Source: Alphaproteobacteria bacterium | GTDB taxonomy: Bacteria; Pseudomonadota; Alphaproteobacteria; Bin95 | Assembly (NCBI GenBank): GCA_965215305.1 | Contig: OZ244041.1 | Coordinates: forward strand, 3,836,510-3,900,509 | Reading direction: 5' to 3' | DNA: 64,000 bases | In this document: positions 4,680-31,369 of the stretch, piece after piece | Numbering within the stretch: position 1 is the stretch's first letter | How the letters are laid out: the number at the start of each line of letters is the position of its first letter | The notes under the pieces: model-generated | What the model was told of the DNA's origin: nothing | The model's input: only the letters and a program-made list of their open reading frames with translations | Databases searched by the model: none | Translations under genes and position numbers: made by a program

Positions 4680-4724
4680 AGCGGGAGCCTAGCACGTCGG
4701 CAGCATCTTCTTGCGCAAGAGTCG

Positions 4725-5304: not shown

Positions 5305-5420
5305 CGTTCCGCCCCGGGTGAAGTGTCCATATTGTATGCTGGCCCCCTGTATCGGGGAGGACTATGCCGCTAGCTTGCATCCGGCCCTGTGTGGGCAATT
5401 CCGCCGATAGAGGATGACCG

Positions 5421-6593: not shown

Positions 6594-6683
6594 CGGGATA
6601 TGGCCCTTGCAGGCGATGGTCCCGCCTTGATCGGCCAGGGCGGAAATGTCATGCCTTTCGGCGGCGGAACGAGCGGAGCCAGT

Positions 6684-10571: not shown

Positions 10572-10585
10572 GGCGGTGGGGCAGC

Positions 10586-10996: not shown

Positions 10997-11003
10997 TGGG
11001 CGG

Positions 11004-11285
11004 CTATAGCCTTACCTCGCGGCCGGCTGTTTTCTCACGCACATCGGCAAACAACTCGTCGGGGTCCAAGGCAAGTCCCTCAAGCCCAACATTGCTTGCA
11101 AACTCCCGGTAAGCATCGCCGAAGGTCCGCCGCAGCGAGGAGAGCCGCTCAAACTCTCGGCATCCGATCAGGATCGCTACGGGCGCACCCCGGCGGGTAA
11201 GCTCCACCGCCTTGCCGATCTCTGCGTCTCTAACCAGAGACGAGAGGTTGCGCCGGGCTTCAGCTATCGAATGTCGATCCATCAT
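11004..11285 (-). CDS. Type II antitoxin (Phd/YefM-like) paired with VapC
   Basis: About 93 aa from MMDRHSIAEARRNLSSLVRDAEIGKAVELTRRGAPVAILIG. It ends 7 nt upstream of vapC. The longer ORF-track start at 11393 is considered an extension. Confidence 0.6.
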   Translation of the reverse strand: MMDRHSIAEARRNLSSLVRDAEIGKAVELTRRGAPVAILIGCREFERLSSLRRTFGDAYREFASNVGLEGLALDPDELFADVREKTAGREVRL

Positions 11286-11364
11286 CGCCTCTCCTCCATG
11301 TCCATCAATATGTACATGATAGGCAATGCCGCAACGAAGAGAAGCCCCGAACCTGCCGACGGGG

Positions 11365-12796: not shown

Positions 12797-14170
12797 TCAG
12801 GGGGCGGAAAACTCCAGGCTGGCCTTGAGGCCCGGCGGGTCCTTGCCGGGCGCCGCATCCACCAGCACCAGCCGGGCATTGTGGCGCCGTGCGGCGGCGG
12901 CGGCCAGCGCGAGGCCGAGGCCGTTGCCCGGCAGGTGCCGACTCGGATCGAGGCGCACGAAACGGTCAATCGCGCGCTCCCGGTCCTCGGGCGCAATGCC
13001 GGGGCCGCTGTCCGCTACGGATACGCCGGAGGGCCCGACAGCGATGGAGACCCGCCCGCCCGCCGGTGTGTATTTGAGCGCATTGTCGATGAGATTGGAG
13101 AGCGCCTGGCCCAGCAGTTCGGGCTGTCCTTCGATTTCCGGCGCGGGCCCCGCCTGCGCGAATTCGAGCGCGACGCCGCGTTCCTCCGCCAGCGGCGCAT
13201 GGAGTTCGACCAGATCGTCCACGAGCCCGGCCAGGTCGATGGGCAGGGTTGGCGCCGGGCCCGAGTCCGCGCGCGCGATGGCCAGCAGGGTGTTGAAGGT
13301 CTCCATGAGCTCCCGCACCTCTGCCACCGACCGCTCCAGCGCGTCGCGATAGGCCGCGGCTTTCGCTGGCCCACGCAGCACGTCCTCCAGCCGCGCATGC
13401 AGGCGGGCCAGCGGCCGGCGAAGGTCATGCGCGATATTGTCGGTCACCTCTCGCAGCTCGTTCATCAGAACCTCGATACGCGCCAGCATCCGGTTGACGC
13501 TTGTCGCAAGGTCGTCGAACTCGTCGCCGCGCCCCGTCACCGGCACCCGGCGCGACAGGTCCCCGTCCTTCATGATCCGGCGGCCGGTCTCGTCCACCGC
13601 CTCCGCGCGCCGGCGCAGATCGCGGGAGACCAGCGCGCCGGCCGCCAGGCCCGCCAGCACGATCAGCCCTCCGGCCGCGGCGCCGAAAATTACGATCCGG
13701 CGGCTGAGCGCGATCTCCTCGTCGATATCGTGCGCAACCAGCAGCCGGAACCCGTCGGGAAGGTTCGCGACATAGGCGCGGGCCGTGTGCCGGTGGGGCG
13801 GCTCGCCGTCATGTGCGCGGCGATAGTGGAAATCGTGCCACGCGCCGGGTTCGCGCGCGTCGGCCGGCCAGGCCGCGAGATTGCCGGCAGCCTTGCGGCC
13901 CCGGCGGTCCACCAGCAGATAGAGCGACCGGCCCTCCTGCCGGCTGCGCCCGTCGATCACCGCGCTGAGCCGGAGCGGTCCGAACGCCCGGTAATGCTCC
14001 GCCAGCCCCTCGAGTTCCGCTGCCACGATCTGTCGGCTCTCGATTTGCAGCGCCTCCAGCGACTCGCTGTAGAGATAGCGGAAACCGGCAAAGGCGAAGA
14101 CCGCCAGCACGGCCAGGTAGCCCAGCGTCAGCCGGAAGGCCGAGGTGCGCAGCAGTTCAGTCGGCCGCAA
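12797..14170 (-). CDS. Sensor histidine kinase (two TM helices, HAMP, HisKA, HATPase_c)
   Basis: Contains the H-box ELREVTDNIAHDLRRPLARL, the N-box LSNLIDNALKYT and the G-box DSGPGIAPEDRERAIDRF. Confidence 0.85.
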   Translation of the reverse strand: MRPTELLRTSAFRLTLGYLAVLAVFAFAGFRYLYSESLEALQIESRQIVAAELEGLAEHYRAFGPLRLSAVIDGRSRQEGRSLYLLVDRRGRKAAGNLAAWPADAREPGAWHDFHYRRAHDGEPPHRHTARAYVANLPDGFRLLVAHDIDEEIALSRRIVIFGAAAGGLIVLAGLAAGALVSRDLRRRAEAVDETGRRIMKDGDLSRRVPVTGRGDEFDDLATSVNRMLARIEVLMNELREVTDNIAHDLRRPLARLHARLEDVLRGPAKAAAYRDALERSVAEVRELMETFNTLLAIARADSGPAPTLPIDLAGLVDDLVELHAPLAEERGVALEFAQAGPAPEIEGQPELLGQALSNLIDNALKYTPAGGRVSIAVGPSGVSVADSGPGIAPEDRERAIDRFVRLDPSRHLPGNGLGLALAAAAARRHNARLVLVDAAPGKDPPGLKASLEFSAP

Positions 14171-14843
14171 GGCGGTATCCGACGCCCCGAACGGTATGCA
14201 GCAGCGGCCGGTCGAAGCCCCTGTCGATCTTGGCCCGCAGCCGCGAGATCTGGGCGTCGATCACATTGGTGCCCGGGTCGAAGCGGTAATCCCAGACCTG
14301 CTCCAGCAGCATGGTCCGCGTGACGACCCTGCCAGCATGTTCGGCCAGCACTTCCAGCAGGCGGAATTCCTTGGGCTTGAGCGGCAGCGGCACTCCGGCG
14401 CGGTACACGGCGCGCTCCAGGCGGCGGATTTCGAGGTCGCCGATGGTGACATCGGTTTCCGCCGCGACCGGCGCACGCCGCCGGGCGAGCGCCTCCACCC
14501 GCGCGCGCAGTTCTGCAAAGGCGAACGGCTTGACGAGGTAGTCATCTCCACCGGCGTTCAGCCCCTTCACGCGGTCGCCGACGCTGCCGAGCGCGGTGAG
14601 GAACAGCACCGGCGTCATGTCGCCCCCGGCGCGCAGGGTCCGCACGAGGCTTAGCCCGTCCAGCTTCGGCAGCATGCGGTCCACCACCAGCACGTCGAAG
14701 CCGCCGCTCTCGGCCGCAGCGAGCCCGTCCGGGCCGTTTGCAGCGGTCTCGACGCGGTGCCCGTCCTCGCGGAGGCCTCTGGCCGTATAGGCCGCCGTCT
14801 CGCTGTCGTCTTCGATAATGAGGATATCGAGCATGAGCTGCAC
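14157..14843 (-). CDS. OmpR-family response regulator
   Basis: Receiver domain (DILIIEDD...VLVVDRMLPKLDG). Winged-helix DNA-binding domain (LTPKEFRLLEVLAEHAGRVVTRTMLLEQVW). 14-nt overlap with the kinase gene. Confidence 0.85.
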   Translation of the reverse strand: MQLMLDILIIEDDSETAAYTARGLREDGHRVETAANGPDGLAAAESGGFDVLVVDRMLPKLDGLSLVRTLRAGGDMTPVLFLTALGSVGDRVKGLNAGGDDYLVKPFAFAELRARVEALARRRAPVAAETDVTIGDLEIRRLERAVYRAGVPLPLKPKEFRLLEVLAEHAGRVVTRTMLLEQVWDYRFDPGTNVIDAQISRLRAKIDRGFDRPLLHTVRGVGYRLAAD

Positions 14844-14914
14844 TTTAGCATGACGGGGAAAGGGCCGGACGCCCGCCGGCGGGAGGAGGAACCGGCGAGC
14901 GTCCGGGGCGGGGA

Positions 14915-16330
14915 TCAGGCCGTGTCGAGCGGCAAGGCTACGAACCGGTCCCGGTTTTCCCGCCTGAGAAGCATGACGACGACCTCACGGCCGTCGGCTC
15001 TGAGCTCGGCAACGATCTCCTTCGCCTCACCCGGTGTCTCGACCGCACGACGGTCCACCGAAAGGACGACATCGCCCTTGCGCACGCCCTTGCGGGCCGC
15101 CGGGCCGCCGGGCGCCACATCCGCGATGACGACCTTGCCGTCCGCCTGGCCGAGATCGAGGCCGGCGAAACGCCCGGCAGGGGCAGCCGCGTTCACGGGC
15201 CGGCTCTCTGCCGGCATCGCGGCAAGCACCGCTTCGACACGCGCCTCCGCGCCGTCCCGCCAGAGCTTGAGCGCCACGGTTTCGCCCGGGTCGCGTTCGG
15301 CGATCATGCGCGGCAGGCGGCCCGTATCGACGACGCGCCGGTCGTCCACCTCGAGGATGACATCGCCCGCCTTCAGGCCGGCCTTCGCTGCCGGGCCGGA
15401 GGGATCAACCGACGCCACCAGCGCGCCCGCTGGGCCTTCCAGGCCCAACGCGGCCGCCAGGTCGTCGTCGATATGCTGGATGCGGACACCGAGACGCCCG
15501 CGCTCGACCGCGCCATTCGCCTTCAGCTCCGCCACGATGTCGCCCGCCAGCGCCGCCGGCACGGCGAAGCCGATGCCGACATTGCCGCCGTTCGGGGAGA
15601 AGATCGCCGTATTCACGCCGATGACCTCGCCCTGGAGGTTGAAGGTCGGGCCGCCCGAATTGCCTCGGTTGATGGGCGCGGAAATCTGTAGAAAGTCGTC
15701 ATAGGGACCGGCTCCGATCTGGCGTCCGCGCGCCGAAACGATGCCGGCCGTGGCGGAATGGCCGAGGCCGAAGGGATTGCCGAGCGCCACCACCCAGTCG
15801 CCGACCCGGACCTGTTCGGAATCGCCGAACACGACATGTGCGAGCGGCTCATCCGCTTCCACCTTGACGACGGCAAGGTCCGTCTTCGGGTCCACACCGA
15901 CGAGGCGCGCCGGGAGCTTCTGCTTGTCGTGCAAGGTGACAGCGATCTCCTTCGCGCCCGCCACGACATGGTGGTTGGTGACGATATGGCCGTCGGCCGA
16001 GATGACGAAGCCGGAGCCCACGCCCGTGACCGGCCGCCAGTCGCGCCACTTTTCCGGCCAGGGCGCACGGTCGCCGAAGAAGCGACGCATGAATTGCTGC
16101 GGGCCGTCCGGCACCTCGGTCTTCGCGCTTTTTTCGACCCGGATGTTCACAACGGCGGGCGTCACCCGCTCGATGGTTCCGGCCAGACTCGGCAGCGCGG
16201 CGGCGGCGGGCGGCGCGGCGCTCTGGAACGCGCCGACATGCCAGGCGCTGCCGGCCGCGAGCGCGCCGCCAAGCAGGATGGCGGCGAACGCGCGTCGGGC
16301 CGGTCGGCGAACAAACAGTCTGGTCTGCAT
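14915..16330 (-). CDS. Do/DegP/HtrA-family periplasmic serine endoprotease with two PDZ domains
   Basis: Signal peptide. Trypsin-like core (GSGFVISADGHIVTNHHV...GNSGGP). Two PDZ segments. 471 aa. Confidence 0.85.
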   Translation of the reverse strand: MQTRLFVRRPARRAFAAILLGGALAAGSAWHVGAFQSAAPPAAAALPSLAGTIERVTPAVVNIRVEKSAKTEVPDGPQQFMRRFFGDRAPWPEKWRDWRPVTGVGSGFVISADGHIVTNHHVVAGAKEIAVTLHDKQKLPARLVGVDPKTDLAVVKVEADEPLAHVVFGDSEQVRVGDWVVALGNPFGLGHSATAGIVSARGRQIGAGPYDDFLQISAPINRGNSGGPTFNLQGEVIGVNTAIFSPNGGNVGIGFAVPAALAGDIVAELKANGAVERGRLGVRIQHIDDDLAAALGLEGPAGALVASVDPSGPAAKAGLKAGDVILEVDDRRVVDTGRLPRMIAERDPGETVALKLWRDGAEARVEAVLAAMPAESRPVNAAAPAGRFAGLDLGQADGKVVIADVAPGGPAARKGVRKGDVVLSVDRRAVETPGEAKEIVAELRADGREVVVMLLRRENRDRFVALPLDTA

Positions 16331-16416
16331 GATGTGTTTCCTTCCGCTGACGATGCGGCAGAGGCCGCGTTCAGCGAAAGATAGGAGGGCGCCCTTACCG
16401 GAACCTTGCCGCCGTC

Positions 16417-17397
16417 TTACGATCCGGCAAGGAAACGGGTGAGCAGTCCCCGCGCGGCCGCCGCCGGCGCGGCGCGGCCCGCCGCCACCTCCTTCTCAAG
16501 CGTTTCAGCAAGCGCGCTGAGCATGTCATCGCGCCGGAGCGCCTCCAGCGCGCCCTCAGAGATCTCGTTCCACATCCAGGCGGTCGCCTGCCGGGCGCGG
16601 CGTTGTTCGAGGCCCGCCCCCACCGCCTCGCGGAAGGCGCCGACCGCATCCCATACCTCCGGGATGCCGGCACCGGTCAGCGCCGAGCAAGTCTGCACCC
16701 GGACCGTCCAGCCGGGCGCGGAGGGTCGCAGCAGGTGGATCGCCGCTTCATAGTCGGCTGCCGTGCGCCCCGCCTGATCCTCGAGTTCGCCATCCGCCTT
16801 GTTGACCAGCACAAGGTCCGCCAGCTCGACGATGCCGCGCTTGATGCCCTGCAGTTCATCGCCGCCCGCCGGCAGGAGCAGCAGCAGGAACATGTCCACC
16901 ATGTCGGCGACCGCGGTCTCCGACTGGCCGACCCCGACAGTCTCTACCAGCACCACATCGAAGCCGGCGGCCTCGCAAGCCAACATCGCCTCGCGCGTCC
17001 GCCGCGCGACGCCGCCGAGCGTCACCCCGGCCGGCGAGGGGCGGATGAAGGCGGCGCTGTTCCGCGCCAGCGCCTCCATGCGCGTCTTGTCACCCAGGAT
17101 CGAGCCGCCGGAGCGCTTCGAACTCGGATCGACCGCCAGCACCGCGACCCGGTGCCCCGCTTCGATGACATGGCGGCCGAATGCCTCGATGAAGGTGGAT
17201 TTGCCGACCCCCGGCGCGCCGCTGACACCGAGGCGCACGGACCGCCCGGCCTCCGGCAGCAGCACCTCCAGAAGCGCGTCTGCCCGCTCCCGATGGTCAG
17301 GGCGCGAGGATTCGATCAGTGTGATGGCCCGCGCAAGCGCCCGGCGTTCGCCCGCCAGCACTGCCGCCGCGAGGCGGGAAGGATCGGTCTCCTCCAT
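16417..17397 (-). CDS. meaB: Methylmalonyl-CoA mutase-associated GTPase MeaB (ArgK-like)
   Basis: P-loop GVSGAPGVGKST. G-domain LVNKAD. It sits immediately downstream of the mutase gene. Confidence 0.85.
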   Translation of the reverse strand: MEETDPSRLAAAVLAGERRALARAITLIESSRPDHRERADALLEVLLPEAGRSVRLGVSGAPGVGKSTFIEAFGRHVIEAGHRVAVLAVDPSSKRSGGSILGDKTRMEALARNSAAFIRPSPAGVTLGGVARRTREAMLACEAAGFDVVLVETVGVGQSETAVADMVDMFLLLLLPAGGDELQGIKRGIVELADLVLVNKADGELEDQAGRTAADYEAAIHLLRPSAPGWTVRVQTCSALTGAGIPEVWDAVGAFREAVGAGLEQRRARQATAWMWNEISEGALEALRRDDMLSALAETLEKEVAAGRAAPAAAARGLLTRFLAGS

Positions 17398-17423
17398 GCG
17401 CGGCGGTGCCGGTCCCGCGCCGC

Positions 17424-19574
<2,151 letters not shown>

Positions 19575-19654
19575 TTCAGCCTCTCCGTTCCGTCCGGCGG
19601 CGAGGCTTATCTTACCGCGACTCGGCGCCGGGGCGGGAGTCCGCCTCTCCGGCG

Positions 19655-19945
19655 TCAGTCCACTCCGTCCAGGGCGACGAATTCGCCCACCGCCGCATGG
19701 GCCCGGAGCGCCTTGATCTCGGTGTATTCGGGCGAGTTGTAGAACGCCTTCGCCCGTTCGAGCGAGGGGAACTCGATAATGACCATGCGGTCCCGGAATT
19801 CGGGCCCCTCAAGCGTGACGGGTTCGGCGCCGCGCACAAGGAAGCGCCCGCCGAACGCGGCAATGCAATCCGGTGTGCGCGCCGTGTAGCGGCTGTATTG
19901 CTCGGGGTCGGTCACCTTCACACGGGCCACGACATAAGCGGTCAT
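19655..19945 (-). CDS. DUF1330-family small protein
   Basis: 96 aa. [20 protein letters not shown]... matches the DUF1330 pattern. Confidence 0.55.
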
Positions 19946-19975
19946 CGGCGGTATTTCCTTGCTTGCAAGCAGGCG

Positions 19976-20287
19976 TCATTCGGCGGCGGCGCCAGGGTGT
20001 TCGTTGCGTCGCACGATATAGCCTTCGAGAAAGTCCATCTTGCCTTCCAGACGGCTCAGCCGGTCGCGAATTTCCCGCAATTCCTCCTCAACACGGTCAA
20101 TGCGGGTGCCGAGAGTGCTCTCCACACGGTCAATGCGGGCGCCGAGAGTGCTCTCCACACGATCAATGCGGGCGCCGAGAGTACTCTCCACCCGGTCGAT
20201 GCGCGCATTGACGCCGCGAAGCCCCTGCCAGAGCAAACCCGCCAGCCCGATACCGACGCCGAGGATTGCGGCGAGCTCCGGTGTCAT
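19976..20287 (-). CDS. Small N-terminally membrane-anchored protein with four tandem 11-residue (hendecad) repeats
   Basis: 103 aa. Predicted TM helix MTPELAAILGVGIGLAGLLWQGL. Repeats ARIDRVESTLG x3 then TRIDRVEEELR. The antisense ORF 19697..20320 also overlaps the DUF1330 gene and lacks a coherent domain, so the minus-strand frame is preferred. Confidence 0.5.
   Translation of the reverse strand: MTPELAAILGVGIGLAGLLWQGLRGVNARIDRVESTLGARIDRVESTLGARIDRVESTLGTRIDRVEEELREIRDRLSRLEGKMDFLEGYIVRRNEHPGAAAE
20075..20222. repeat. Intragenic near-perfect 33-bp tandem repeat (3 copies with 1-2 mismatches, plus a degenerate 4th)
   Basis: Plus-strand units CACGGTCAATGCGGGTGCCGAGAGTGCTCTCCA / CACGGTCAATGCGGGCGCCGAGAGTGCTCTCCA / CACGATCAATGCGGGCGCCGAGAGTACTCTCCA. 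They are in frame with the 11-aa protein repeat. Confidence 0.8.
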
Positions 20288-20356
20288 AAGTCCTCTCCTT
20301 ACCGGCTTGTGTCCCGCTGACCGTCACAGTCACATTGCCGGTCCGACCGCAGGCAA

Positions 20357-20926
20357 TCAAGGGAATTCGCGCCCGGCGGGCATCATGGCCGTGCCCGCCT
20401 CGCGGTCCGTGAGAGGCGGGTAGCGGCGCGGGCGGAAGAGCTGGTAGTGCCACCATTCGTTCATGTAGAAATCCCAGCCCGCGGCGCTCATCAGGCCGAG
20501 CAGCAGCGCGCGGTTGCGTTGCGCTTCCGGGGATACCGCCACAGACCCGTGATGCGAAGCGGGCGTGAGGTCGTCGAAGCCCGTGCCCATGTCGAGCGGC
20601 GCAGCGTCCGAGCCAGTAAGTGTCAGATCGACGGCGACGCCGCGCGTATGGATGCCGCCCCGGCGCGGATCGGCGATATAGGCGGGGTCGGGGATGGCAC
20701 GCCAGAGCGCCCATTGCGCCTCCAGCGGCCGGAAGGCGTCGAACAGCAGCAGGCCGAGCCCCTGCGCCCGCGCGAGAGCCGCTGCTCGGACGAATGCCGC
20801 CTCGGCCTCCGGGACGAGCCAGGCGTCCGCCCGGGCGTAGATCGGCCGCCCGGCAACATTGTCCGCCCGCGCATAGGCAATGTCGAAGGCGACGCCAGGG
20901 CGCTCAGGCGACAATCGGACCAGCAT
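20357..20926 (-). CDS. D-alanyl-D-alanine dipeptidase (VanX/DdpX-like, peptidase M15D)
   Basis: 189 aa. Zn-binding region and catalytic segment are recognisable (…FDAFRPLEAQWAL…, GIHTRGVAVDLT, NEWWHYQL). Confidence 0.8.
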   Translation of the reverse strand: MLVRLSPERPGVAFDIAYARADNVAGRPIYARADAWLVPEAEAAFVRAAALARAQGLGLLLFDAFRPLEAQWALWRAIPDPAYIADPRRGGIHTRGVAVDLTLTGSDAAPLDMGTGFDDLTPASHHGSVAVSPEAQRNRALLLGLMSAAGWDFYMNEWWHYQLFRPRRYPPLTDREAGTAMMPAGREFP

Positions 20927-20950
20927 GGCGGCGGACTCTGCTCCGATTCC

Positions 20951-21424
20951 CTACCGGATGGAACCGGGTTCGAGGAAGATCAGCACGACCCCACCCGCAA
21001 TCAGGGCGACGCCGGCCCCTTGCCGCCACCCAAAGGGTTCGCCGAAGGTCAGCGCCGAGGCAATCACTGCGATCGCGACGGTGCCGGCGACGACCGTCGG
21101 AATGACCGCGCCGGCCCGCAGGGGCCTGTCGAGACCGATGCCGCCGAAAAGGTAGAAATAGCCGATCTCGGCGGCGCCGATGCACAGGCCCGCGAGCGCG
21201 GCCCAGACATAGGCCCTGGGCGTGAGCGAGAAGACATGGCCGCCCTGAATGGCCAGGAAACCCAGGAACAGCAGCGAGGTCGAAAGCGCGGCAGCCTGCA
21301 GGCAGACGGTCGCCAGCACGGTCGTGGTGGCCGCGGCCGGCACATGGGTCCCCGACAGTTTCACCAACAGGTTGTAGCCTGCATAAAGCAGCGTCACCGC
21401 CGCCAGGAGCATCGCAGCGACCAT
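20951..21424 (-). CDS. Small EamA/DMT-superfamily membrane transporter (single EamA domain)
   Basis: About 157 aa from MVAAMLLAAVTLLYAGYNLLVKL, with 4-5 hydrophobic helices. The N-terminal 49 codons of ORF-track frame 20951..21571 look non-coding. Confidence 0.55.
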   Translation of the reverse strand: MVAAMLLAAVTLLYAGYNLLVKLSGTHVPAAATTTVLATVCLQAAALSTSLLFLGFLAIQGGHVFSLTPRAYVWAALAGLCIGAAEIGYFYLFGGIGLDRPLRAGAVIPTVVAGTVAIAVIASALTFGEPFGWRQGAGVALIAGGVVLIFLEPGSIR

Positions 21425-21464
21425 GGGCGCCCTCCATCCGGTTTCCGGGGATTGGCCGGGTCGC

Positions 21465-22100
21465 TCAGGGGGCCGTGCTCCCGCCATAGCCGTCCATCGC
21501 GGCCAGCACGTCGTCCAGGGACCGCCGGGCGCCGGTCTGCAGATATTCCATAGCCCGCAAGGCGGCCTCATGCGCCTCCGGACCGGAGCCGGCGACGCAG
21601 TCCTCGATCACGCGACAGAAATAGTCGCCCTGATGGCCGTCGACGAAGGTATAATGGACGCAGACATCGGTCAGCCCGCCCGTCAATAGCAGCGTATCGG
21701 CCCTGAGCCCCCGCAGCAGGATTTCCAGATCGGTGCCATAGAAGGCCGAATAGCGGCGCTTCTGGATCAGGTAGTCTCCGTCGCGGAAGTCGATCACCTC
21801 CTTCGCAAGCGCCGTTTCCGGGTTGTTGTCGAGGCAGTGGATGTCCTCGCTGCCGTCGAGTTCGCGGCCGAAATCCACCAGGTCGGCCCGGTGAATCTCC
21901 TGGATGAACACGATCGGGATCCCCGTCTCGCGCGCCCGGTCGATGGCGAAGCGGGTCCGGGCCACCCGTTCGGCATAGTCCGGCATGTGCGGAATCGCGC
22001 GGGCTTCCTTCTTCACGAAGGCGGATTGCTGGATGTCGATGACGATCAGGGCCGGGCGGCCCTCGATCAGCTTGCGTTTCGGCGTTCCGGTGTCGGCCAT
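21465..22100 (-). CDS. Isochorismatase-family (cysteine hydrolase) protein
   Basis: 211 aa from MADTGTPKRKLIEGRPALIVIDIQ. The catalytic-Cys region is LLLTGGLTDVCVHYT. The long upstream extension of this frame (to 23369) overlaps the ABC ATPase in another frame and was rejected. Confidence 0.75.
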   Translation of the reverse strand: MADTGTPKRKLIEGRPALIVIDIQQSAFVKKEARAIPHMPDYAERVARTRFAIDRARETGIPIVFIQEIHRADLVDFGRELDGSEDIHCLDNNPETALAKEVIDFRDGDYLIQKRRYSAFYGTDLEILLRGLRADTLLLTGGLTDVCVHYTFVDGHQGDYFCRVIEDCVAGSGPEAHEAALRAMEYLQTGARRSLDDVLAAMDGYGGSTAP

Positions 22101-22168
22101 GCAAGGACCCCGCTCAAGGCCGCGCTGCGGCGTTCCGACGGCGGACTGTAGCGGATTTCCCGCCGAGG

Positions 22169-23278
22169 TCACGACGTCAGCACGGCGCCCGCCTCCGCCG
22201 GCCATGTCAGCACCGCCCGGTCTCCCACGGCGAAAGGCCGGGCGGGCGCGCTGCCGGCGTTCGGCCTCGAGACCCTGAGCACGCCCTCGGGGCTGGGGGC
22301 GATACGAACGCCGTAGATCGACAGCCCGCCGCGATAGCTGACATCCTCCACCTGCCCGACAAGCCGGTTGCATGCAGCGGCCAGGGGCTCCTCCTCCCCC
22401 GGCCGGGCGATGGTGATCTTCTCCGGCCGGACCGCGAGCCAGACGGCCCGGCCGTCTGCAACGCCGGGCGCTACACCCGCCGCCAGATGCGCGCCGAGCC
22501 CCGGCGCCTCTATCCGGAAGCCGCCGCTCGCAGTCCGGCGGCCGGTACCGGCGATCAGGTTGACGGCGCCGATGAAGCCGGCGGTGAAGCGGTCGACAGG
22601 ATGTTCGTAGAGTTCCGCCGGCGGCGCCGTCTGGCGGATCGTCCCGCCTTCCATGACCGCCACGCGGTCCGCCATGGACAGCGCCTCCTCCCGGTCGTGG
22701 GTCACCAGCACGAAGGCGATGCCGACCGTCTCCCTGAGACGGACGAGCTCGAAGCGCATCTGCTCGCGCAAGGGCGCGTCCAGGGCCGCGAGCGGCTCGT
22801 CCAGCAGCAGCGCCCTCGGCTGCTTGACGAGCGCCCTCGCCAGCGCCACCCGCTGGCGCTCGCCGCCGGAGAGCCGATCCGGCATCCGGCGGCCGTAGCC
22901 GCCGAGCGCCACCAGGTCGAGCGCTTCCTCCGCCCGCGAGCGCGCGGCCGCGCGCCCGACGCCTGCCGCGCGCAGCCCATAGGCCACATTGTCGAGCGCC
23001 GAGAGGTGGGGAAACAGGGCATAGGACTGGAAGACCGTGTTGACCGGACGGCGGTTCGCCGGCTCGAAGGTCATGTCCCGCCCGTCGATGAACACGGCCC
23101 CGGCATCGGGATGCTCCAGCCCCGCGAGCAGCCTGAGCACGGTCGTTTTCCCGCAGCCGGAGGGGCCGAGCAGTGCGAAGAATTCGCCCGTGCGGATTTC
23201 GAGGCTGACCTCCCGCACCGCCTCGACGGCGCCGAAGCTCTTTCGCAGCCCCGCCGCCCGGATGACCGGCGCCGTCAC
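22169..23278 (-). CDS. ABC transporter ATP-binding protein (PotA/PotG-like)
   Basis: Walker A GPSGCGKTT. Signature LSGGERQRVALARAL. Walker B LLLDEPLAALD. C-terminal TOBE-like domain. A GTG start overlaps the stop of the upstream permease (GTGA). Confidence 0.85.
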   Translation of the reverse strand: MTAPVIRAAGLRKSFGAVEAVREVSLEIRTGEFFALLGPSGCGKTTVLRLLAGLEHPDAGAVFIDGRDMTFEPANRRPVNTVFQSYALFPHLSALDNVAYGLRAAGVGRAAARSRAEEALDLVALGGYGRRMPDRLSGGERQRVALARALVKQPRALLLDEPLAALDAPLREQMRFELVRLRETVGIAFVLVTHDREEALSMADRVAVMEGGTIRQTAPPAELYEHPVDRFTAGFIGAVNLIAGTGRRTASGGFRIEAPGLGAHLAAGVAPGVADGRAVWLAVRPEKITIARPGEEEPLAAACNRLVGQVEDVSYRGGLSIYGVRIAPSPEGVLRVSRPNAGSAPARPFAVGDRAVLTWPAEAGAVLTS

Positions 23279-24126
23279 AGGAAGCCCTCCCGCAACCGCC
23301 GGTTCCGGAGGCCGACAGCAAGCGCAGCGGCGGCGGCCGTGACCGCGACCAGCACGGTCGAGGCGGCATTGACCTCGGGCGTCACAGAAAACCGCACCAT
23401 GGAATAGACCTTGACCGGGAAGGTGATCGTATCCGGCCCCGAGGTGAAGAAGGTGATGACAAAATCGTCCAGCGACAGGATAAAGGCGAGCAGCGCGCCC
23501 GCTATGAGCGCGGGTCGCATATGCGGGACGACCGTGTCGCGGAGCGCCGCCCAGGGCCCGGCCCCGAGGTCGCGCGCCGCCTCCTCCAGCTCCCGATTGA
23601 AGCCCGCCAGCCGGGCGCGGACGACGACGGCGACGAAAGGAAAGGCGAAGGAGACATGCGCGACCCCGATGCGCGAGAGGTTGAGCGGCCAGGGCAGGTC
23701 TTCGGGCCAGCCGATCCGCGAAAAGAAGACCAGCATCGCCACGCCCATGCAGATCTCGGGAATCACGATGGGGAGCGCAACGGCCCCCTCGCAGGCCCAT
23801 TTGAACCGAAAGCGGTAGCGCCAAAGCAGCCAGGCGGCGGCCGCGCCGAGACCCGTCGCCACCAGGGCGGTAAAGCCGGCGATCAGGAGCGAGTTGACGA
23901 ACGCCTCGATCAGCGCCTCATTGGCGGCGGCTTTCTCGTAATATTTCGTCGTGAAGCCGCGCCAGACGATGTTGCGCTTGCTGTCGTTGAAGGAGAAGGC
24001 GATGAGTGCGGCAAGCGGCGCATAGAGGAAGACGAAGACCGCAAGCAGGACGAGCCGCATCCAGGCCCGGCGCGTGTAGTCGAGCGGGCCTGGCGGCGGG
24101 CGGCGGCGCGTCGTCCGGCCCGTCAC
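23275..24126 (-). CDS. ABC transporter permease (PotC/PotI-like)
   Basis: 283 aa. Six TM helices with the EAA-like loop (ARDLGAGPWAALRDTVVPHMRPAL). Confidence 0.85.
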   Translation of the reverse strand: MTGRTTRRRPPPGPLDYTRRAWMRLVLLAVFVFLYAPLAALIAFSFNDSKRNIVWRGFTTKYYEKAAANEALIEAFVNSLLIAGFTALVATGLGAAAAWLLWRYRFRFKWACEGAVALPIVIPEICMGVAMLVFFSRIGWPEDLPWPLNLSRIGVAHVSFAFPFVAVVVRARLAGFNRELEEAARDLGAGPWAALRDTVVPHMRPALIAGALLAFILSLDDFVITFFTSGPDTITFPVKVYSMVRFSVTPEVNAASTVLVAVTAAAAALAVGLRNRRLREGFL

Positions 24127-25019
24127 CGGGCGCCTCGCCGGCTAGCGGCAAGCGCCGGACCCAGCGCCAGCGCGCCGAATGCGGCATAGATCAGCAGCAG
24201 AGACAGTGCGGCGCCGAACGGCCAGTCATTGGCCCGCTTGAACTGGCGCTCGATGACATTGGCGATCATCTGGCTGTCGGCGCCGCCGAGCAGGTCCGGC
24301 GTCAGATAGGAACCGAGCGCCGGGACGAAGACCAGCAACGTTCCCGCCAGGGCGCCCGGCAGCGCCGCCGGCATGACGACCGTCCAGAAGGCGCGTATCC
24401 GGCTGGCGCCGAGGTCGAGCGCCGCCTCGACCAGCGAGCGGTCCATCCGCTCCAGCGCCGCATAGAGCGGCAGCACCATGAAGGGCAGATGCGCATAGAC
24501 CAGCCCGACCACAACGGCGGTATCGTTGTAGAGCAGCGGCAGCGGCTCGAAAGGCAGACCCAGCCGCTCCGCCATCCAGCCGAGAACGGAATTCACATAG
24601 CCCCTCGTTCGCAGCACCGCGATCAGCGCATAGCTGCGGATGAGCAAATTGGTCAGGAACGGCAGCACGACCAGCAGCAACAGCAGCGGCTTCCAGCGCG
24701 CCGGCGCGAAGGCGACGCCGACCGCCACCGGCAGGCCGAGAGCAAGCGAGACCGCGGCGGTCAGCCCGGCAAGCCAGACGCTCCTCAGGAGAATGTCGAG
24801 ATAGAGGGGATCGAGCGCACGCAGATAGTTGTCGAGCGTCCAGACGATCTCGATCTCGACCAGCCCCTCCTGCCTGCCGAAGCTGAACACCCACACAAAG
24901 GCAAGCGGGGCGAGAAAGAAGAGCAGGAACCAGAGGCCGGGCGCCAGCGCCGCAAGGCCCGGCAGCAGGGCGCCCCGCTTCCGGCCTGGCCGGCGGCCGG
25001 TTTCGGCCTTTGCCGTCAA
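24123..25019 (-). CDS. ABC transporter permease (PotB/PotH-like)
   Basis: 298 aa. EAA loop ALDLGASRIRAFWTVVMP. 4-nt overlap with the downstream permease. Confidence 0.85.
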   Translation of the reverse strand: MTAKAETGRRPGRKRGALLPGLAALAPGLWFLLFFLAPLAFVWVFSFGRQEGLVEIEIVWTLDNYLRALDPLYLDILLRSVWLAGLTAAVSLALGLPVAVGVAFAPARWKPLLLLLVVLPFLTNLLIRSYALIAVLRTRGYVNSVLGWMAERLGLPFEPLPLLYNDTAVVVGLVYAHLPFMVLPLYAALERMDRSLVEAALDLGASRIRAFWTVVMPAALPGALAGTLLVFVPALGSYLTPDLLGGADSQMIANVIERQFKRANDWPFGAALSLLLIYAAFGALALGPALAASRRGAR

Positions 25020-26086
25020 GCCGCCCGGATCCGGGTCCAGGCCTCCTCATAGAGCCGCGCAGCCTCCTGGCCCCTATAGAGGGCCGGCTCGCAGGCCGCG
25101 AGTGTCTCCGCGCCCGGGAAGATGCCCGGGTTCCCGGTATAGCTTTCCGGCAGCAGCGCCTTCGCGGCCGCATTCGGCGTCGCATAGCGGATCGCCTGCG
25201 CGATGGCCGCGCCGGCCTCGGCCTCCAGGATGAAATTTATGAAGGTGTGCCCGTTTTCTGGGTGCGGCGCGCCCCGCGGGATGGCGAGCGCATCCTCCCA
25301 CAGGATCGACCCCTCGCGCGGCACGACATAGGAGATGTCGTCGTCCTCCGCCATCGCCTGCAATATGTCGCCGTTCCACTCCATCGCGATATCCACCTCG
25401 CCGGAGAGCAGCAGGTCCTGCCCGGTGTCCGGCGCAAACAGCTTGAGATGCGGCTTCTGCCGGACAATCAGCGCCTCGGCCGCCGCGATGAGCTTCGGGT
25501 CAGTGGTGTTGAGCGGATGGCCCATATATTTGAAGGCCGCGCCCAGCACCGTGGCCGCCTCGCTCTGCAATGCGCAGCGCCCGCTGTAACGGTCCGAGTC
25601 GTAAAGCCAGCGCCAGCTGTCCGGCACGCCGTCGCAGCGCGACTTGCGGTAGCCGATGCCCATCGTGCCCCACATATAGGGGATGGAGTGGCGCCGGCCG
25701 GGGTCGAAGGCGACATCCCGGAAGGCAGGCTCGATATGCGCCATATTGGGAATGGCCGCATGGTCGAGCGGCATCAGCATGTCGGCGGCGATCATGCGCT
25801 CGACGAAATCATTGGTCGGCACGATGACGTCATAGCCGGGATTGCCCGCCCTCAGCCTTGCGAACAGCTCGTCATTGTCCGCATAGAGGTCCATCCGCAC
25901 CGCTATGCCGGTAAGCGTCTCGAAATCCGCCAGAGTGGTCTCGCCGATATAGGTGTCCCAATTGTAGAAATTGAGCCGGGGCTCTTCACCGGCGAACACT
26001 GTCCGCGGCAGGAACGAGAGGCCCGCCGCTGCGGTGCCCGCGAGGAAGTGGCGGCGCGTCGGCCGGGTTCCAAGAACCGGGTGCAT
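25016..26086 (-). CDS. Periplasmic substrate-binding protein of a polyamine/opine-type (PotD/PotF-like) ABC transporter, with Tat signal
   Basis: Twin-arginine signal TRRHFLAGTAAAGLSF. SBP_bac_1-like fold. 4-nt overlap with the downstream permease. Confidence 0.8.
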   Translation of the reverse strand: MHPVLGTRPTRRHFLAGTAAAGLSFLPRTVFAGEEPRLNFYNWDTYIGETTLADFETLTGIAVRMDLYADNDELFARLRAGNPGYDVIVPTNDFVERMIAADMLMPLDHAAIPNMAHIEPAFRDVAFDPGRRHSIPYMWGTMGIGYRKSRCDGVPDSWRWLYDSDRYSGRCALQSEAATVLGAAFKYMGHPLNTTDPKLIAAAEALIVRQKPHLKLFAPDTGQDLLLSGEVDIAMEWNGDILQAMAEDDDISYVVPREGSILWEDALAIPRGAPHPENGHTFINFILEAEAGAAIAQAIRYATPNAAAKALLPESYTGNPGIFPGAETLAACEPALYRGQEAARLYEEAWTRIRAA

Positions 26087-26156
26087 CGCGGTCTCCCCAA
26101 GCTTTCCGGAGCGAGAGCCGGGCGAGTGTCGAGTGGGTGCGGGGACAAGTCAAATG

Positions 26157-26162
26157 CAGGAG
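26157..26162 (+). promoter_or_regulatory. Strong Shine-Dalgarno (AGGAGG) 9 nt upstream of the ATG at 26172
   Basis: Sequence AATGCAGGAGGTGCAACGAATGCATG read directly. Confidence 0.6.
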
Positions 26163-26171
26163 GTGCAACGA

Positions 26172-27014
26172 ATGCATGCCAGAATCGGCGGTGACACGCG
26201 AATTATCGCGCATCTTGGCGTGCCGACGACGACCTTCAGGTCGCCGCTCATCTACAATCCCTGGTTCCGGAGCCGGGGCATCGACTGCGTGATGGTGCCG
26301 ATGGGGTGCGAGGCGGCGGATTTCGCGGCCTTCCTGCCGCTCGTCTTCCGCCTGCGCAACATAGCGGGCGCGCTCGTTACCATGCCGCACAAGAGGGCGG
26401 CGGCGCGCCTGCTCGACGAGGCGGGCCCGGCCGTCGCGATCTGCGGATCGTGCAACGCGGTGAAGCGAGGCGAAGACGGACGGCTGATCGGAGACATGTT
26501 CGACGGCGAAGGCTTCGTTGCCGGCCTAAGGAGCAAGGGGCGCACAGTCGAGGGCGTCTCGGCGCTCGTGGTCGGATCGGGCGGCGCCGGCGCCGCCATA
26601 GCGGCCTCGCTGGCGGGGGCCGGCGCAGCGCGCCTCGCCCTGTTCGACATCGACAGCCGGGCTTCGGAGAGCCTTGCCGGCCGGTTGCGCAGCCATTATC
26701 CGGAGATCGCGCTTGAGACCGGATCGAACGACCCGCAGGGCCACCGCATCGTCGTGAACGCATCCCCGCTCGGCATGAAGCCCGGCGACCCTCTCCCGAC
26801 GGACCCTGAGCGCATCGAACCGGGCAGCTTCGTCGGCGATGTCGTGCTGACGCGGGAGGAGACCCCCTTCCTCGCCGCTGCCCGCGCCGGGGGGTGCCAG
26901 ACCCAGGCCGGAATTGACATGGTGTTCGAGCAGGCCCCGGCCTATCTGGACTTCTTCGGATTTCCCGCTGCGACGCCGGAAGAACTCCGCCGGCTCGCCG
27001 AACTGGACGACTGA
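26172..27014 (+). CDS. Shikimate/quinate 5-dehydrogenase-family protein (AroE-like)
   Basis: Substrate-binding N-terminal domain (GVPTTTFRSPLIYNPWF). Rossmann motif VVGSGGAGAAIAASL. 280 aa from MHARIGG. Confidence 0.7.
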   Translation: MHARIGGDTRIIAHLGVPTTTFRSPLIYNPWFRSRGIDCVMVPMGCEAADFAAFLPLVFRLRNIAGALVTMPHKRAAARLLDEAGPAVAICGSCNAVKRGEDGRLIGDMFDGEGFVAGLRSKGRTVEGVSALVVGSGGAGAAIAASLAGAGAARLALFDIDSRASESLAGRLRSHYPEIALETGSNDPQGHRIVVNASPLGMKPGDPLPTDPERIEPGSFVGDVVLTREETPFLAAARAGGCQTQAGIDMVFEQAPAYLDFFGFPAATPEELRRLAELDD

Positions 27015-27111
27015 AGGCGGCAGGCTCCGCGGTTCGGCGCGGGCTGCTGCGCTCTGCCTGCGGCAAAGGCTTGACACAGGCGAAGCCGTGATAGACTGGC
27101 AACCGCGGAGA

Positions 27112-27135
27112 GGCGGCTTCCGGAGCCGCCTTTTC
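27112..27135 (+). terminator. Rho-independent terminator-like hairpin GGCGGCT-TCCGG-AGCCGCC followed by TTTTCG
   Basis: Read directly. It lies about 100 nt downstream of the AroE-like stop and about 40 nt downstream of a TTGACA-N15/16-TAGACT promoter-like element. Confidence 0.4.
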
Positions 27136-27284
27136 GATTCCGGAGACGCGGAGACCCGGGAGAAATACCGGAAACGGACCGGGGATATGCGCCCGGCGCA
27201 GAGAGCGTCCATGACAAAGCATGACATTCTGAGACAGGCCCGGCGGCGGTGCCGGACCATCCCGGCCTCCGCGCCGGTATCGCG

Positions 27285-28217
27285 ATGCGAACGGTGAGAT
27301 ACGGCCCGATGCTGGCCCGGTTCCAGGCCCTGCCGCCCGTCGCGCAGGGCATGTTGCTGATGATCGTCACCACGCTCTGCTTCACCACGATGCAGACGAT
27401 GGTGCGGCTGATGGGCGAGGCACTGCCGCCTTTCGAGGTTGCGTTCTTCCGCAACCTTTTCGGCCTGCTCGCGCTTGCGCCGATTTTCCTGCGCCACGGC
27501 ATTGCCCCCCTGCGCACGAAGATGCTGCATCTCCATGCGTTGAGAGGCGCGGTGCAGGCGGGCGGGATGCTGGCCTTCTTCACCGGGGTCACAATGATTC
27601 CGCTCGCCGAGGTTACGGCCCTGTCCTTCTCCGCGCCGCTGTTCGGCAGCCTTCTGGCGGTGGTCCTGCTCGGCGAGATCATCCGCATGCGCCGCATCAC
27701 GGCGCTGGTCGCGGGCTTCGCCGGCGTGCTGCTGGTGTTGCGCCCGGGTTTCGCGGAGGTCAGCACGGGCGCCCTGCTGATCGTCGCCTCCTCACTCACC
27801 TGGGGGCTGGCGATCACGCTCATCAAGGTGCTGGCGAGAACCGAATCGAGCGTGACGCAGACCGTCTATATGGGCCTGTTCATGACCCCGATCACCTTCC
27901 TCCCGGCGCTCCTCGTCTGGGAATGGCCGGCCCCGGAGCATTATCTCTGGTTCGCGGCCATCGGCGCTGTAGGCACGGTCGGCCACCTTGCCTTCGCCCA
28001 GGCCGTCAAGACCGCCGATTCGACGGCCGTGCTGCCGCTCGACTTCCTGCGGCTCATCTGGGCGAGCCTGGTCGGATATTTCCTTTTCGCCGAGACGCCC
28101 GATGCGTGGTCCTGGCTCGGCGGTGCGGTCATTTTCGCATCCGCCACCTATATCGCCTACCGCGAAAGCCGGCTGGCGCGGTCGAGGAAGGGTCACGATG
28201 CTTCCACCGACACTTGA
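27285..28217 (+). CDS. DMT-superfamily (EamA/RhaT-like) 10-TM transporter
   Basis: Two EamA-like halves with hydrophobic helices throughout. The start is uncertain: 27249, 27285 or 27309. Confidence 0.7.
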   Translation: MRTVRYGPMLARFQALPPVAQGMLLMIVTTLCFTTMQTMVRLMGEALPPFEVAFFRNLFGLLALAPIFLRHGIAPLRTKMLHLHALRGAVQAGGMLAFFTGVTMIPLAEVTALSFSAPLFGSLLAVVLLGEIIRMRRITALVAGFAGVLLVLRPGFAEVSTGALLIVASSLTWGLAITLIKVLARTESSVTQTVYMGLFMTPITFLPALLVWEWPAPEHYLWFAAIGAVGTVGHLAFAQAVKTADSTAVLPLDFLRLIWASLVGYFLFAETPDAWSWLGGAVIFASATYIAYRESRLARSRKGHDASTDT

Positions 28218-28274
28218 ACAAGCCGGCAAACGGCTATATAACAATGGAAAATTTGACATTCCGGAGTCATTTCG

Positions 28275-30653
28275 ATGACGACCGCGACCATGCGTTCCGA
28301 ACGGCCGGTATTGTTCCCGCCCCGGCTGCGCCGCGGCCTCCGCCGGCTGGGTCTGAGGGCGCTCGGCAGCGCGCAATTGGCCGTCGGGCTGGCGCTCGCG
28401 CTCGCGCTGGTCACCTACGACGCCTCCGATCCGTCCGCCAATGTCGCCTCCAGCGGCTCGACCTCCAATGTGCTCGGCGGCGCCGGCGCGTGGATTGCGG
28501 ATTGGCTGCTACGGGGTTTCGGCCTGGCCGCTGCGGCCGCGGCCATTGCCCCGATCGCCTGGGGATGCCGCGGGCTGAAACTGAAGTGGACGCGCCACAC
28601 CGCCCTGCGACTGGCCGCCCTGGCGCTCGTCCTGCCCTGCCTCGCCATGGGGCTGGCGGCGTTCCAGGGTGTCGCGGACTGGCCGCTTCGCGAGGAGCCC
28701 GGAGGCGTCCTCGGAACCGTGCTGCGCCAGCAGACGGACCTGCTGCTGGGCGGTCAGGCATGGGTCGTCCATGCCGTCGCGTTCTGCCTGGGCACATTGC
28801 TTGCGGCCTGGGTGTTCGGCTTCGACCTGGAGGACTGGGCATGGGTCGGCGCCGGCGTGGTCGCAACAGGGCGGGCGTTTCGGCGTGCTGCCGGCCTGTT
28901 GCCCGTGCCGTCGGTCGGCCTTTCCGGCCATGGCAGGCCAACGGAAACGCCGCAGCGCACCCGGCGCCGGACGGCGCCCGCGCTGCGGCAGGCCGGAGTC
29001 GAGGAGACCGACATGGCGGCGCCCGCGGAAGCGGGAGAGGACGTGCCGTCCGTACCGCCCCCGCCCGCTGCCCCGGAACAACCGCCTCCCCGGCGCCGGA
29101 AACGGGGACCGGCGATCCAGCAACGCAGCCTGCCGCTGGACGACGGCTATATGCCGCCGCCGGTCGACATGCTGCAATTGCCGCCGCCGGACGCCGTGCG
29201 CGGTCGGCCGGACGAGGAAACCCTGGAGCGCAATGCGGCGCTGCTGATGTCGGTGCTGGAGGATTTCGGTATCGGCGGCGAGGTGGTCGCAACGCGCCCG
29301 GGTCCGGTGGTGACGCTCTACGAATTCGAGCCGCAGGCGGGGATCAAGTCGTCCCGCATTATCGGCCTCGCGGACGACATCGCGCGCTACATGTCGGCAA
29401 TTTCGGTGCGCGTGGCCCTTGTCCCCGGCCGCACGGTGATCGGTATCGAAATGCCGAACCGGATCCGCCAGACGGTCTTCATGCGCGAGCTGATCGAGAC
29501 CGACGCCTACGAGCGTTCGAAGGCGGACCTGCCGCTGATACTCGGCAAGGATATCGGCGGGGCCCCCAAGATCGCCCAACTGGAGAGTATGCCTCACCTG
29601 CTGATCGCCGGCACCACGGGTTCCGGAAAGTCGGTCGCGATCAACACCATGATCCTTTCCCTGCTCTACAGGCTGCCGCCCGAGCGCTGCCGGCTCATCA
29701 TGGTCGATCCGAAAATGCTGGAACTCTCCGTCTATGAGGGTATCCCGCATCTTCTGACCCCGGTCGTTACCGATCCCAGAAAGGCGGTCGTCGCGCTCAA
29801 ATGGACCGTGCGCGAGATGGAAAACCGCTACCGCGCAATGTCGGCCCTCGGCGTGCGCAATATCGGCGGCTACAATGCGCGCATTGCCGACGCGCTCGGC
29901 CAGGGCGAAACCCTGACCCGCCGGGTGCAGACCGGCTACGATCCGGAGACGGGCGCGCCGGAGTTCGAGGACCAGCCGCTGGATATGCGGCCGCTGCCCT
30001 TCATCGTGGTGGTCATCGACGAACTCGCCGACCTGATGCTGGTCGCGCGCAACGATATCGAGACGGCGATCCAGCGCCTCGCCCAGATGGCGCGGGCCGC
30101 CGGCATCCACCTGCTGATGGCCACCCAGCGGCCCTCCGTGGACGTCATCACCGGCACGATCAAGGCGAATTTCCCGACCCGGATCAGCTTCCAGGTCACC
30201 TCGAAGATCGACAGCCGCACCATTCTGGGCGAGGGCGGCGCGGAGCAGCTTCTGGGCCAGGGCGACATGCTGTTCATGGCCGGCGGCGGCCGCATCGCCC
30301 GTATCCACGGCCCCTTCATCTCGGACGAGGAAGTCGAGGAAATCGTTGCCTATCTGAAGACTCAGGGCGCGCCCGACTATCTCGACGCAATCACCGAAGA
30401 CGAGGAAATCGCCTCCGGGATTCCGGGTTTCGATAAGGAAGAAGGCGTGTCGGGAGGTGACGACCTCTATGACCGCGCCGTGGCCTTCGTCGCCCGCGAG
30501 CGCAAGGTGTCCGTCAGCCTCGTCCAGCGCCATCTGAGAATCGGCTATAACCGCGCCGCGCGCATTGTCGAGGAAATGGAGGCCCAGGGCGTGGTCAGCG
30601 GACCCAACCATCAGAACAAACGCGAGGTGCTGGTAGGCGGACATGACGATTGA
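28275..30653 (+). CDS. ftsK: DNA translocase FtsK
   Basis: N-terminal TM domain. Motor domain with Walker [10 protein letters not shown] and Walker B. C-terminal gamma/KOPS-recognition winged helix ([30 protein letters not shown]). Confidence 0.9.
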
Positions 30654-31296: not shown

Positions 31297-31369
31297 GCGG
31301 AAGGCGGTTGAAACCGGGCGCGCGGCGGCGAATAATCGGGGAAAGTTGGCCCCGACGGAGTTACCCCGC

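Follow-up and report, generated by a model that had tools for sequence, protein, structure and literature searches.

Do seven genes that are packed one behind the other on the same strand also serve one pathway? The question is raised by positions 20357–26086 of a 64,000-nucleotide stretch of contig OZ244041.1 from an alphaproteobacterium (the whole stretch is called the window below), where minus-strand genes for a substrate-binding protein (SBP), two ABC permeases, an ABC ATPase, an isochorismatase-like (IHL) cysteine amidohydrolase (Hyd), a small DMT-type membrane protein with a single EamA domain (small EamA) and a DdpX-type D-Ala-D-Ala dipeptidase follow one another with junctions of −4, −4, −4, 68, 40 and 24 nt. 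The original prediction, made from the sequence of the window, took these genes as one long operon for the uptake and two-step hydrolysis of a D-amino-acid-containing amide or dipeptide-like compound. All seven open reading frames (ORFs), their coordinates, junctions and family assignments were confirmed by ORF calls and by Pfam and NCBIfam profiles, the NCBIfam equivalog cut-offs serving as the test of family membership. Comparison with related genomes indicates that the locus is probably a composite, in which a cassette of ~6.4 kb lies between a backbone eamA gene with ten transmembrane segments (10 TMS) and ddpX; this composite origin, the capture of ddpX by the cassette and the uptake function proposed below are judged probable as one joint account.

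Relatives without the cassette were obtained by a look-up centred on DdpX (labels beginning with L denote the related genomes or loci compared with the window). Two such relatives, L084 and L086, with DdpX proteins 85 and 76% identical to that of the window, respectively, carry LolA, FtsK and an EamA protein of ~300 aa with 10 TMS on one strand and DdpX, DUF1330, MCM, MeaB, DegP, a response regulator and a histidine kinase on the other. The window shares this backbone, namely FtsK (28275–30653, in the same order as in L084 and L086), the 10-TMS EamA/DMT transporter that flanks the insertion (27249–28217, plus strand; its 84–87% identical orthologues in L084 and L086 are immediately divergent from ddpX), DdpX (20357–20926, minus strand), the DUF1330 protein downstream of it (19655–19945, minus strand; PF07045, 4.6e-33), MCM and MeaB, and has an extra segment in addition. 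In blastn, the homology of L084 and L086 to the window covers positions 31305 to 27306 and 20932 to 20380, and nothing in them matches 20933–27305, with which tblastn agrees. The homology breaks at 27306 and 20932 delimit an accessory block of ~6.4 kb (20933–27305) that contains small EamA, Hyd, the ATPase, both permeases, the SBP and a divergent AroE-like gene. Since relatives that have no cassette carry ddpX at this very place in the backbone, it is, as judged by gene order, a vertically inherited backbone gene, and the transporter–hydrolase block is accessory. Signatures of mobile elements were not detected, as the window contains no tRNA and the insertion borders are not flanked by meaningful direct or inverted repeats.

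The dipeptidase itself has the features of a backbone enzyme of standard type. It passes the curated model PRK10178 (229.9 bits against a cut-off of 176) and matches Peptidase_M15 (PF01427) with 117.6 bits against a threshold of 27. Residues R66, H93, D100, E157 and H160 align with VanX (1r44), whose active site we take to comprise the zinc ligands H116, D123 and H184, the catalytic Glu E181 and the substrate-binding Arg R71, and are kept in 120–121 of 121 homologues. A score above the curated equivalog threshold of ordinary DdpX gives no hint of a changed specificity, and judged by its sequence the protein is the backbone's ordinary D-Ala-D-Ala dipeptidase with its catalytic site intact. More distant orthologues (63–65% identical) are neighboured by TsaB/RimI, polysaccharide deacetylase and glucosaminidase genes (cell-wall genes), and DUF1330 comes after ddpX in every relative, whether the cassette is present or not.

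These data bear directly on the proposal of a single functional operon that imports a D-amino-acid amide or dipeptide-like compound and has it hydrolysed in two steps by Hyd and DdpX, a proposal that we now regard as highly improbable. It draws on the tight same-strand packing, with 24 nt between small EamA and ddpX and junctions free of terminator-like sites, on the small EamA–DdpX order, which is kept in at least eight related genomes, on the catalytic residues, which are intact in both hydrolases as the original prediction had required, and on an SBP that is not a canonical polyamine binder. Against this stand the position of ddpX in the cassette-less relatives, a relative (L089) whose cassette has no ddpX beside it, and a DdpX score above the cut-off for the ordinary enzyme. 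In addition, a scan of one genome per species for Hyd (80 best loci, 66–94% identical, from many phyla and mostly marine) found DdpX next to Hyd in only eight of the 80 loci, all of one clade; at ~85–87% DNA identity among these genomes, the adjacency reflects common descent and not independent selection. The components of the proposed operon thus do not occur together across independent lineages, and the part of the original prediction that coupled DdpX to the importer is not supported, whereas its association of an ABC importer with an isochorismatase-family enzyme and a DMT protein recurs widely (see below).

If ddpX is a backbone gene, its close junction with the cassette calls for another explanation. 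The sequence upstream of ddpX that is common to the window and L084 amounts to only ~20 nt before the ATG. Through the insertion, ddpX would have been cut off from all but ~24 nt of its upstream region, and it would now probably be read through from the cassette, a case of operon capture with no shared pathway. A long operon is in this sense physically plausible, with a housekeeping gene captured at its end rather than a two-step pathway encoded by it. Co-transcription is probable because the junction measures 24 nt, no terminator-like site lies in it and the ancestral upstream region has been displaced; sites resembling intrinsic terminators or promoters are in fact absent from all six junctions. 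A riboswitch or other RNA leader (e.g. a guanidine riboswitch) was considered and ruled out, as Rfam gave no match at E ≤ 1 across window positions 19000–28500, nor did seven Hyd loci yield any that reached the gathering score.

Two further features were seen in the surroundings of ddpX. The 457-bp EamA–ddpX intergenic region of L084 is AT-rich at L084 positions 7640–7690, where TGTCATG is repeated three times (ttgtcatgaaatgtcatgttctgtcatgg). This stretch, unrelated to the window cassette, could have a regulatory role or be a mere remnant. Downstream, between ddpX and DUF1330, a small minus-strand ORF of the window (19976–20287) includes 3.5 tandem copies of a 33-nt unit (20087–20203) that encodes RIDRVESTLGA. 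This ORF has a weak coiled-coil-like match to DUF7310 and possibly an N-terminal membrane helix; being found in L007 and L008 and absent from L005, L009, L084 and L086, it is a variable insert.

The cassette is unstable even among those relatives that possess it. In the closest ones (L004–L011 and L082; Hyd 84–94% identical), SBP is followed directly by Hyd, and blastn alignments lack window positions ~22110–25010, comprising both permeases and the ATPase, with identical breakpoints (e.g. in L005, L007, L008 and L011). About 20 nt resembling the 5′ end of a permease gene (PermB) remain after the SBP stop codon in the relatives with this deletion, and the shared breakpoints fit one ancestral loss of permeases and ATPase. 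Unstable as the block is, purifying selection acts on SBP, Hyd, small EamA and DdpX: across relatives, their median dN/dS values are 0.19, 0.12, 0.18 and 0.16, respectively, compared to 0.08 for MCM. The orphan SBP also stays intact beside Hyd in L005, L007, L008, L009 and L011 (dN/dS ~0.19). This suggests that the orphan SBP of the close relatives works with another transporter or has a different role.

A contrasting arrangement is present in L089, whose SBP is 94% identical to that of the window. Here, the full SBP–permease–permease–ATPase–Hyd series is kept at 95.8% DNA identity (L089 8978–13647 versus window 26108–21446), whereas the FtsK/EamA backbone and the AroE-like flanks reach only ~85%, a difference suggesting that the SBP-to-Hyd segment was transferred or recombined recently. 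The gene after Hyd in L089 is dnaA; neither small EamA nor DdpX is there, and the Hyd gene, called at 173 aa, aligns out of frame, reflecting a frameshift or an assembly error. Furthermore, a sulfatase–TctBAC set (L089 4375–8908) lies between the AroE-like gene and SBP, and L006 has a TctA-like ORF in a ~6-kb stretch (~4700–7600) at the corresponding place. Such rearrangements could mean that the cassette is the decaying remnant of a larger island (AroE-like – sulfatase – TctBAC – ABC – Hyd – small EamA) that erodes neutrally and has no current role, and the independent events in relatives, i.e. the loss of permeases and ATPase, the loss of the sulfatase–Tct genes and the truncated or frameshifted Hyd of L089, are in line with this. 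We nevertheless consider it quite improbable, given that no part of the cassette is missing from the window, where its ORFs are intact and start and stop codons overlap, that dN/dS is 0.12–0.19 for SBP, Hyd and small EamA, and that the catalytic residues are invariant.

The same comparisons inform on the AroE-like NAD(P) dehydrogenase gene (26172–27014, plus strand; Shikimate_dh_N, 1.5e-12), which is divergent from SBP within the inserted block. Its AGGAGG, described previously for the window, lies 8 nt before its ATG, 85 bp separate its start from that of SBP, and no regulator gene is present in the block. The protein scores below the aroE cut-off (TIGR00507, 133 bits versus 200), and its best PDB match is the uncharacterised “shikimate dehydrogenase family protein” 4k28 (1e-41). 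The gene had been suspected to belong to the same regulon as the importer. In support, it is missing along with the cassette in L084 and L086 and accompanies the block in several relatives; on the other hand, it is split from the block by sulfatase–TctBAC genes in L089 and L006 and absent from L008, L009 and L082, with tRNA-Met in its place on the left flank of L008 and L082. It may belong with the sulfatase/Tct genes rather than with the ABC importer, and its role in the cassette is ambiguous.

What, then, would the cassette import? The SBP (25016–26086; SBP_bac_8, 8.6e-29) is a PotD/PotF-family protein of a distinct subfamily. The remaining transporter genes encode a PotB-like permease, whose TTG start codon overlaps the SBP stop (24123–25019; BPD_transp_1; PotB 235 bits versus a cut-off of 348), a PotC-like permease (23275–24126; BPD_transp_1; PotC 230 bits versus 326) and a PotA-like ATPase (22169–23278; ABC_tran 4.8e-35 and TOBE_2; TIGR01187 341 bits versus 355.6). 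All four proteins therefore lie under their equivalog cut-offs, and the SBP by a wide distance, reaching 195.8 bits against 582 for PotD and 177.7 against 636 for PotF, while PotD-like matches in the PDB go up to 1e-59. We aligned the SBP to full-length E. coli PotD and inspected the 13 residues that we take to be its spermidine contacts. Six are kept (W34, Y37, W229, W255, D257 and Y293), two are changed conservatively (S83T and D168E) and five are replaced (T35D, E36T, Y85D, E171T and Q327A). The resulting pocket signature, W43-D44-T45-Y46, D93, W237, W263, D265 and Y301 in SBP numbering, is conserved in 118 homologues. On these grounds the SBP is a non-canonical member of the PotD family and not a plain polyamine binder, in agreement with the original prediction, which had named firm clustering with characterised polyamine binders as a point that would count against it.

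Two SBP orthologues have informative neighbours: one (77% identical), from another phylum, is an orphan whose neighbour is an IHL paralogue with 26% identity to Hyd, and one (68%) lies near an agmatine-deiminase-family gene and a class-III aminotransferase. A plasmid search with the SBP returned generic polyamine binders, all below 60% identity and at 32–36% among the matches listed. It is unlikely, we think, that the ABC genes form an ordinary spermidine/putrescine importer, paralogous to PotABCD or PotFGHI, with Hyd, small EamA and the AroE-like gene as unrelated neighbours. Such an importer would account for the best NCBIfam and PDB matches, which are PotD/F, PotB/H, PotC/I and PotA/G, and for the retained aromatic box (W43/Y46/W237/W263/Y301) and D265. 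It is difficult to reconcile with the equivalog scores, with the replacement of PotD E36, Y85, E171 and Q327 by a signature conserved throughout the homologues, with an SBP–Hyd adjacency that outlasts the permease/ATPase deletion while both genes are under purifying selection, and with the SBP orthologue of the other phylum, which is paired with an IHL amidase other than Hyd.

Hyd (21465–22100, minus strand; PF00857, 1e-39, 136.8 bits) is highly conserved: the triad D22/K114/C147 together with E68/H70/H88 is invariant in 121 sequences, and the subfamily retains at least 66% identity across Alpha- and Gammaproteobacteria, Acidimicrobiia and Anaerolineales. Its best PDB matches are the biuret hydrolase 6xjm (7e-17), with which it has an E-x-H-R-x-D-L motif in common in the PDB alignment, and a CSHase-related protein; an exact-sequence look-up of the window Hyd gave no match. 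By sequence, Hyd belongs to an uncharacterised, highly conserved IHL subfamily. The characterised IHL amidases nearest to it (biuret hydrolase, N-carbamoylsarcosine-amidase-related enzymes and RutB) cleave a terminal carbamoyl amide (PMC7948467, PMC9800807). Two specific assignments were considered and dropped. Hyd as a guanylurea hydrolase orthologue was rejected, as the alignment to GuuH of pMET-2 has 43% identity over 77 residues and no Pseudomonas plasmid matched at 1e-10. Hyd as a citrullinase was set aside as well, because the proposed bacterial citrullinases CtlX (PF02274) and Ctu (PF00795) belong to families other than IHL; citrullinase activity is kept only as a candidate within a broader ureido class.

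The neighbours of Hyd elsewhere were counted by tblastn and by clustering (within 6 kb) in 83 loci, i.e. the 80 of the Hyd scan and three fetched earlier. An ABC ATPase was found in 29 loci, a LysR regulator in 20, a 10-TMS DMT gene in 13, small EamA in nine (eight in the window clade and L013), ornithine cyclodeaminase (OCD) also in nine, and DdpX in eight, all in the window clade. Hyd comes after an ABC importer in 29 of the 83 loci and is followed by a DMT gene in ~22. The recurring core is an ABC importer, an IHL amidohydrolase and a DMT-type membrane protein, and it is found among arginine/ornithine-, urea- and guanidine-related neighbourhoods. On Roseobacter plasmids, with Sulfitobacter pontiacus and Ruegeria arenilitoris among the carriers of the operon, a LysR gene and an ATPase–SBP–permease–permease series are followed by Hyd, a DMT gene that overlaps Hyd, OCD, SugE, RidA and a second OCD, and the OCD and SugE genes there exceed their equivalog cut-offs. 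In L045 (9836–14026), LysR and ABC genes are followed by Hyd, a DUF1989 pair resembling carboxyguanidine deiminase (UAAP1 and UAAP2) and allophanate hydrolase, and the series from Hyd to allophanate hydrolase is also present in L049, L020, L026 and L053. No urea or guanidine carboxylase lies directly downstream in L045, the one locus checked for it, where a nuclease ORF of opposite orientation comes next. Operons of this type may provide an ATP-independent route from a guanylurea-like compound via carboxyguanidine to allophanate. Agmatinase-family genes are within ~4 kb of Hyd in four loci. Finally, Pseudomonas sp. LPB0260 (L001) has two Hyd clusters within 10 kb (8830–11768 and 13064–19238), each with a urea-transporter-family and an OCD-family gene and one also with RidA and a NupC-like “Gate” transporter, and its putA is ~6 kb from the first Hyd copy. 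In the literature we found no account of clusters combining isochorismatase, OCD and RidA genes.

The third member of the core is represented in the window by small EamA (20951–21424, minus strand; 157 aa). Its assignment to EamA, made previously from the sequence, is a weak point, as the window protein itself remains below threshold (18.2 bits versus 28.2; E 0.003), its residues 3–150 being aligned to positions 3–134 of the 135 of the domain; six of seven orthologues do match EamA, the best with an E-value of 4e-5. About five membrane helices were read from the sequence by eye, and because the protein has a single EamA domain it would need to oligomerise, as a dimer. The gene also comes after Hyd in the gammaproteobacterial locus L013. 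The idea that small EamA is a homologue of the 303-aa DMT protein next to Hyd in Roseobacters was abandoned, as BLASTP detects no such relationship.

Taken together, a route can be proposed for the composite cassette. It would serve to scavenge a nitrogen-rich amide of ureido or guanidino type, with the PotD-like SBP importing a cationic, nitrogen-rich small solute. The SBP retains the aromatic amine-binding box and Asp265 and appears to have lost the acidic residues for the second amine of spermidine, so that the ligand would keep one cationic amine and have a neutral or otherwise different distal group, as do diamines with a ureido or acyl substituent and related amino acids. Cys147 of Hyd would act as nucleophile in hydrolysing the terminal amide or ureido group, which would free ammonia, and the small DMT protein might carry the product or a related solute across the membrane. 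Because of the genes that accompany Hyd orthologues in other genomes, the substrate class is most likely a ureido or guanylureido amine or amino acid, for instance N-carbamoylputrescine, citrulline or a guanylurea-like compound. More tentatively, the Hyd subfamily as a whole might act, widely among marine bacteria, as the amidohydrolase of some natural compound with a ureido or guanylureido group, candidates including citrulline, N-carbamoylputrescine and algal guanylureido amino acids such as gigartinine. The enzyme would then feed ornithine/proline metabolism or the ATP-independent conversion of carboxyguanidine to allophanate, and the PotD-like SBP subfamily would be its matching binder; this is a possibility to which we attach limited confidence.

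Several points weigh against the account given here. As to origin, the direction of the insertion follows from parsimony with two genomes, and two independent losses could explain the pattern instead; moreover, with 87% DNA identity to the window, L084 is about as closely related to it as are the relatives with the cassette. As to the capture of ddpX, an internal ddpX promoter could exist inside the small EamA gene. As to function, the substrate class derives solely from the gene neighbourhoods of Hyd orthologues that are 66–80% identical, about half of the 80 Hyd loci have no conserved neighbours, and the window cassette is without the OCD, RidA, SugE and LysR genes found with Hyd elsewhere. 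Hyd is far under the equivalog cut-offs of its characterised relatives (BiuH 66 bits versus 370, RutB 58 versus 378 and PncA 32 versus 174), GuuH-MET aligns with it over the mentioned 77 aa only, and small EamA has no BLASTP similarity to the 10-TMS DMT protein that follows Hyd in Roseobacters.

For the reading of such loci in general, tight same-strand packing with overlapping or short junctions is no proof of a shared pathway; here, the housekeeping gene ddpX has probably been captured at the end of a cassette. To read all seven genes as steps of a single pathway would be to postulate a metabolism for which the comparison of genomes offers no support. The lead worth following is the module of ABC importer, IHL amidohydrolase and DMT protein, in which Hyd is among the most conserved uncharacterised amidases of marine bacteria; its substrate, once identified, could reveal a nitrogen source of marine heterotrophs.

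As an accessory catabolic uptake cassette, the locus is of a known kind, and its parts can be compared with well-described systems. With ddpXABCDF of E. coli it shares an orthologue-grade dipeptidase with conserved zinc ligands, catalytic Glu and Arg, and a ddpX gene that is likewise downstream of a same-strand ABC importer. The importer here, however, is of the PotD type and that of E. coli of the Dpp/Opp type, and the adjacency would have arisen through insertion of an unrelated cassette, ddpX standing alone upstream of DUF1330–MCM–MeaB in relatives. PotABCD and PotFGHI have the same four-component architecture and fold families, and the cassette keeps their aromatic cation-binding box and the equivalent of Asp257. 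It differs from them in that the SBP gene comes first, every component is below its equivalog cut-off, PotD residues T35, E36, Y85, E171 and Q327 read D, T, D, T and A across the SBP subfamily, and the importer is genetically linked to an amidohydrolase.

The nopaline and octopine operons of Ti plasmids combine a LysR regulator (NocR or OccR) and a P-T-Q-M ABC importer with genes including arginase and ornithine cyclodeaminase. The Hyd loci of Roseobacter plasmids have the same layout, with LysR and an ABC importer followed by ornithine cyclodeaminase, but contain an IHL amidohydrolase in place of the opine oxidase; the window cassette departs further by its PotD-type transporter and by having none of LysR, OCD, RidA and SugE. 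On the side of the hydrolase, the closest known enzymes are the IHL ureide and amide hydrolases BiuH (biuret), TrtA (triuret), GuuH (guanylurea), N-carbamoylsarcosine amidase and RutB (PMC7948467, PMC9800807). Although the similarity of Hyd to every characterised member is low, it has their PF00857 fold and Asp-Lys-Cys triad as well as the E-x-H-R motif of BiuH, and some of its orthologues stand directly upstream of DUF1989 pairs and allophanate hydrolase, the end-pathway enzymes of guanidine and biuret degradation.

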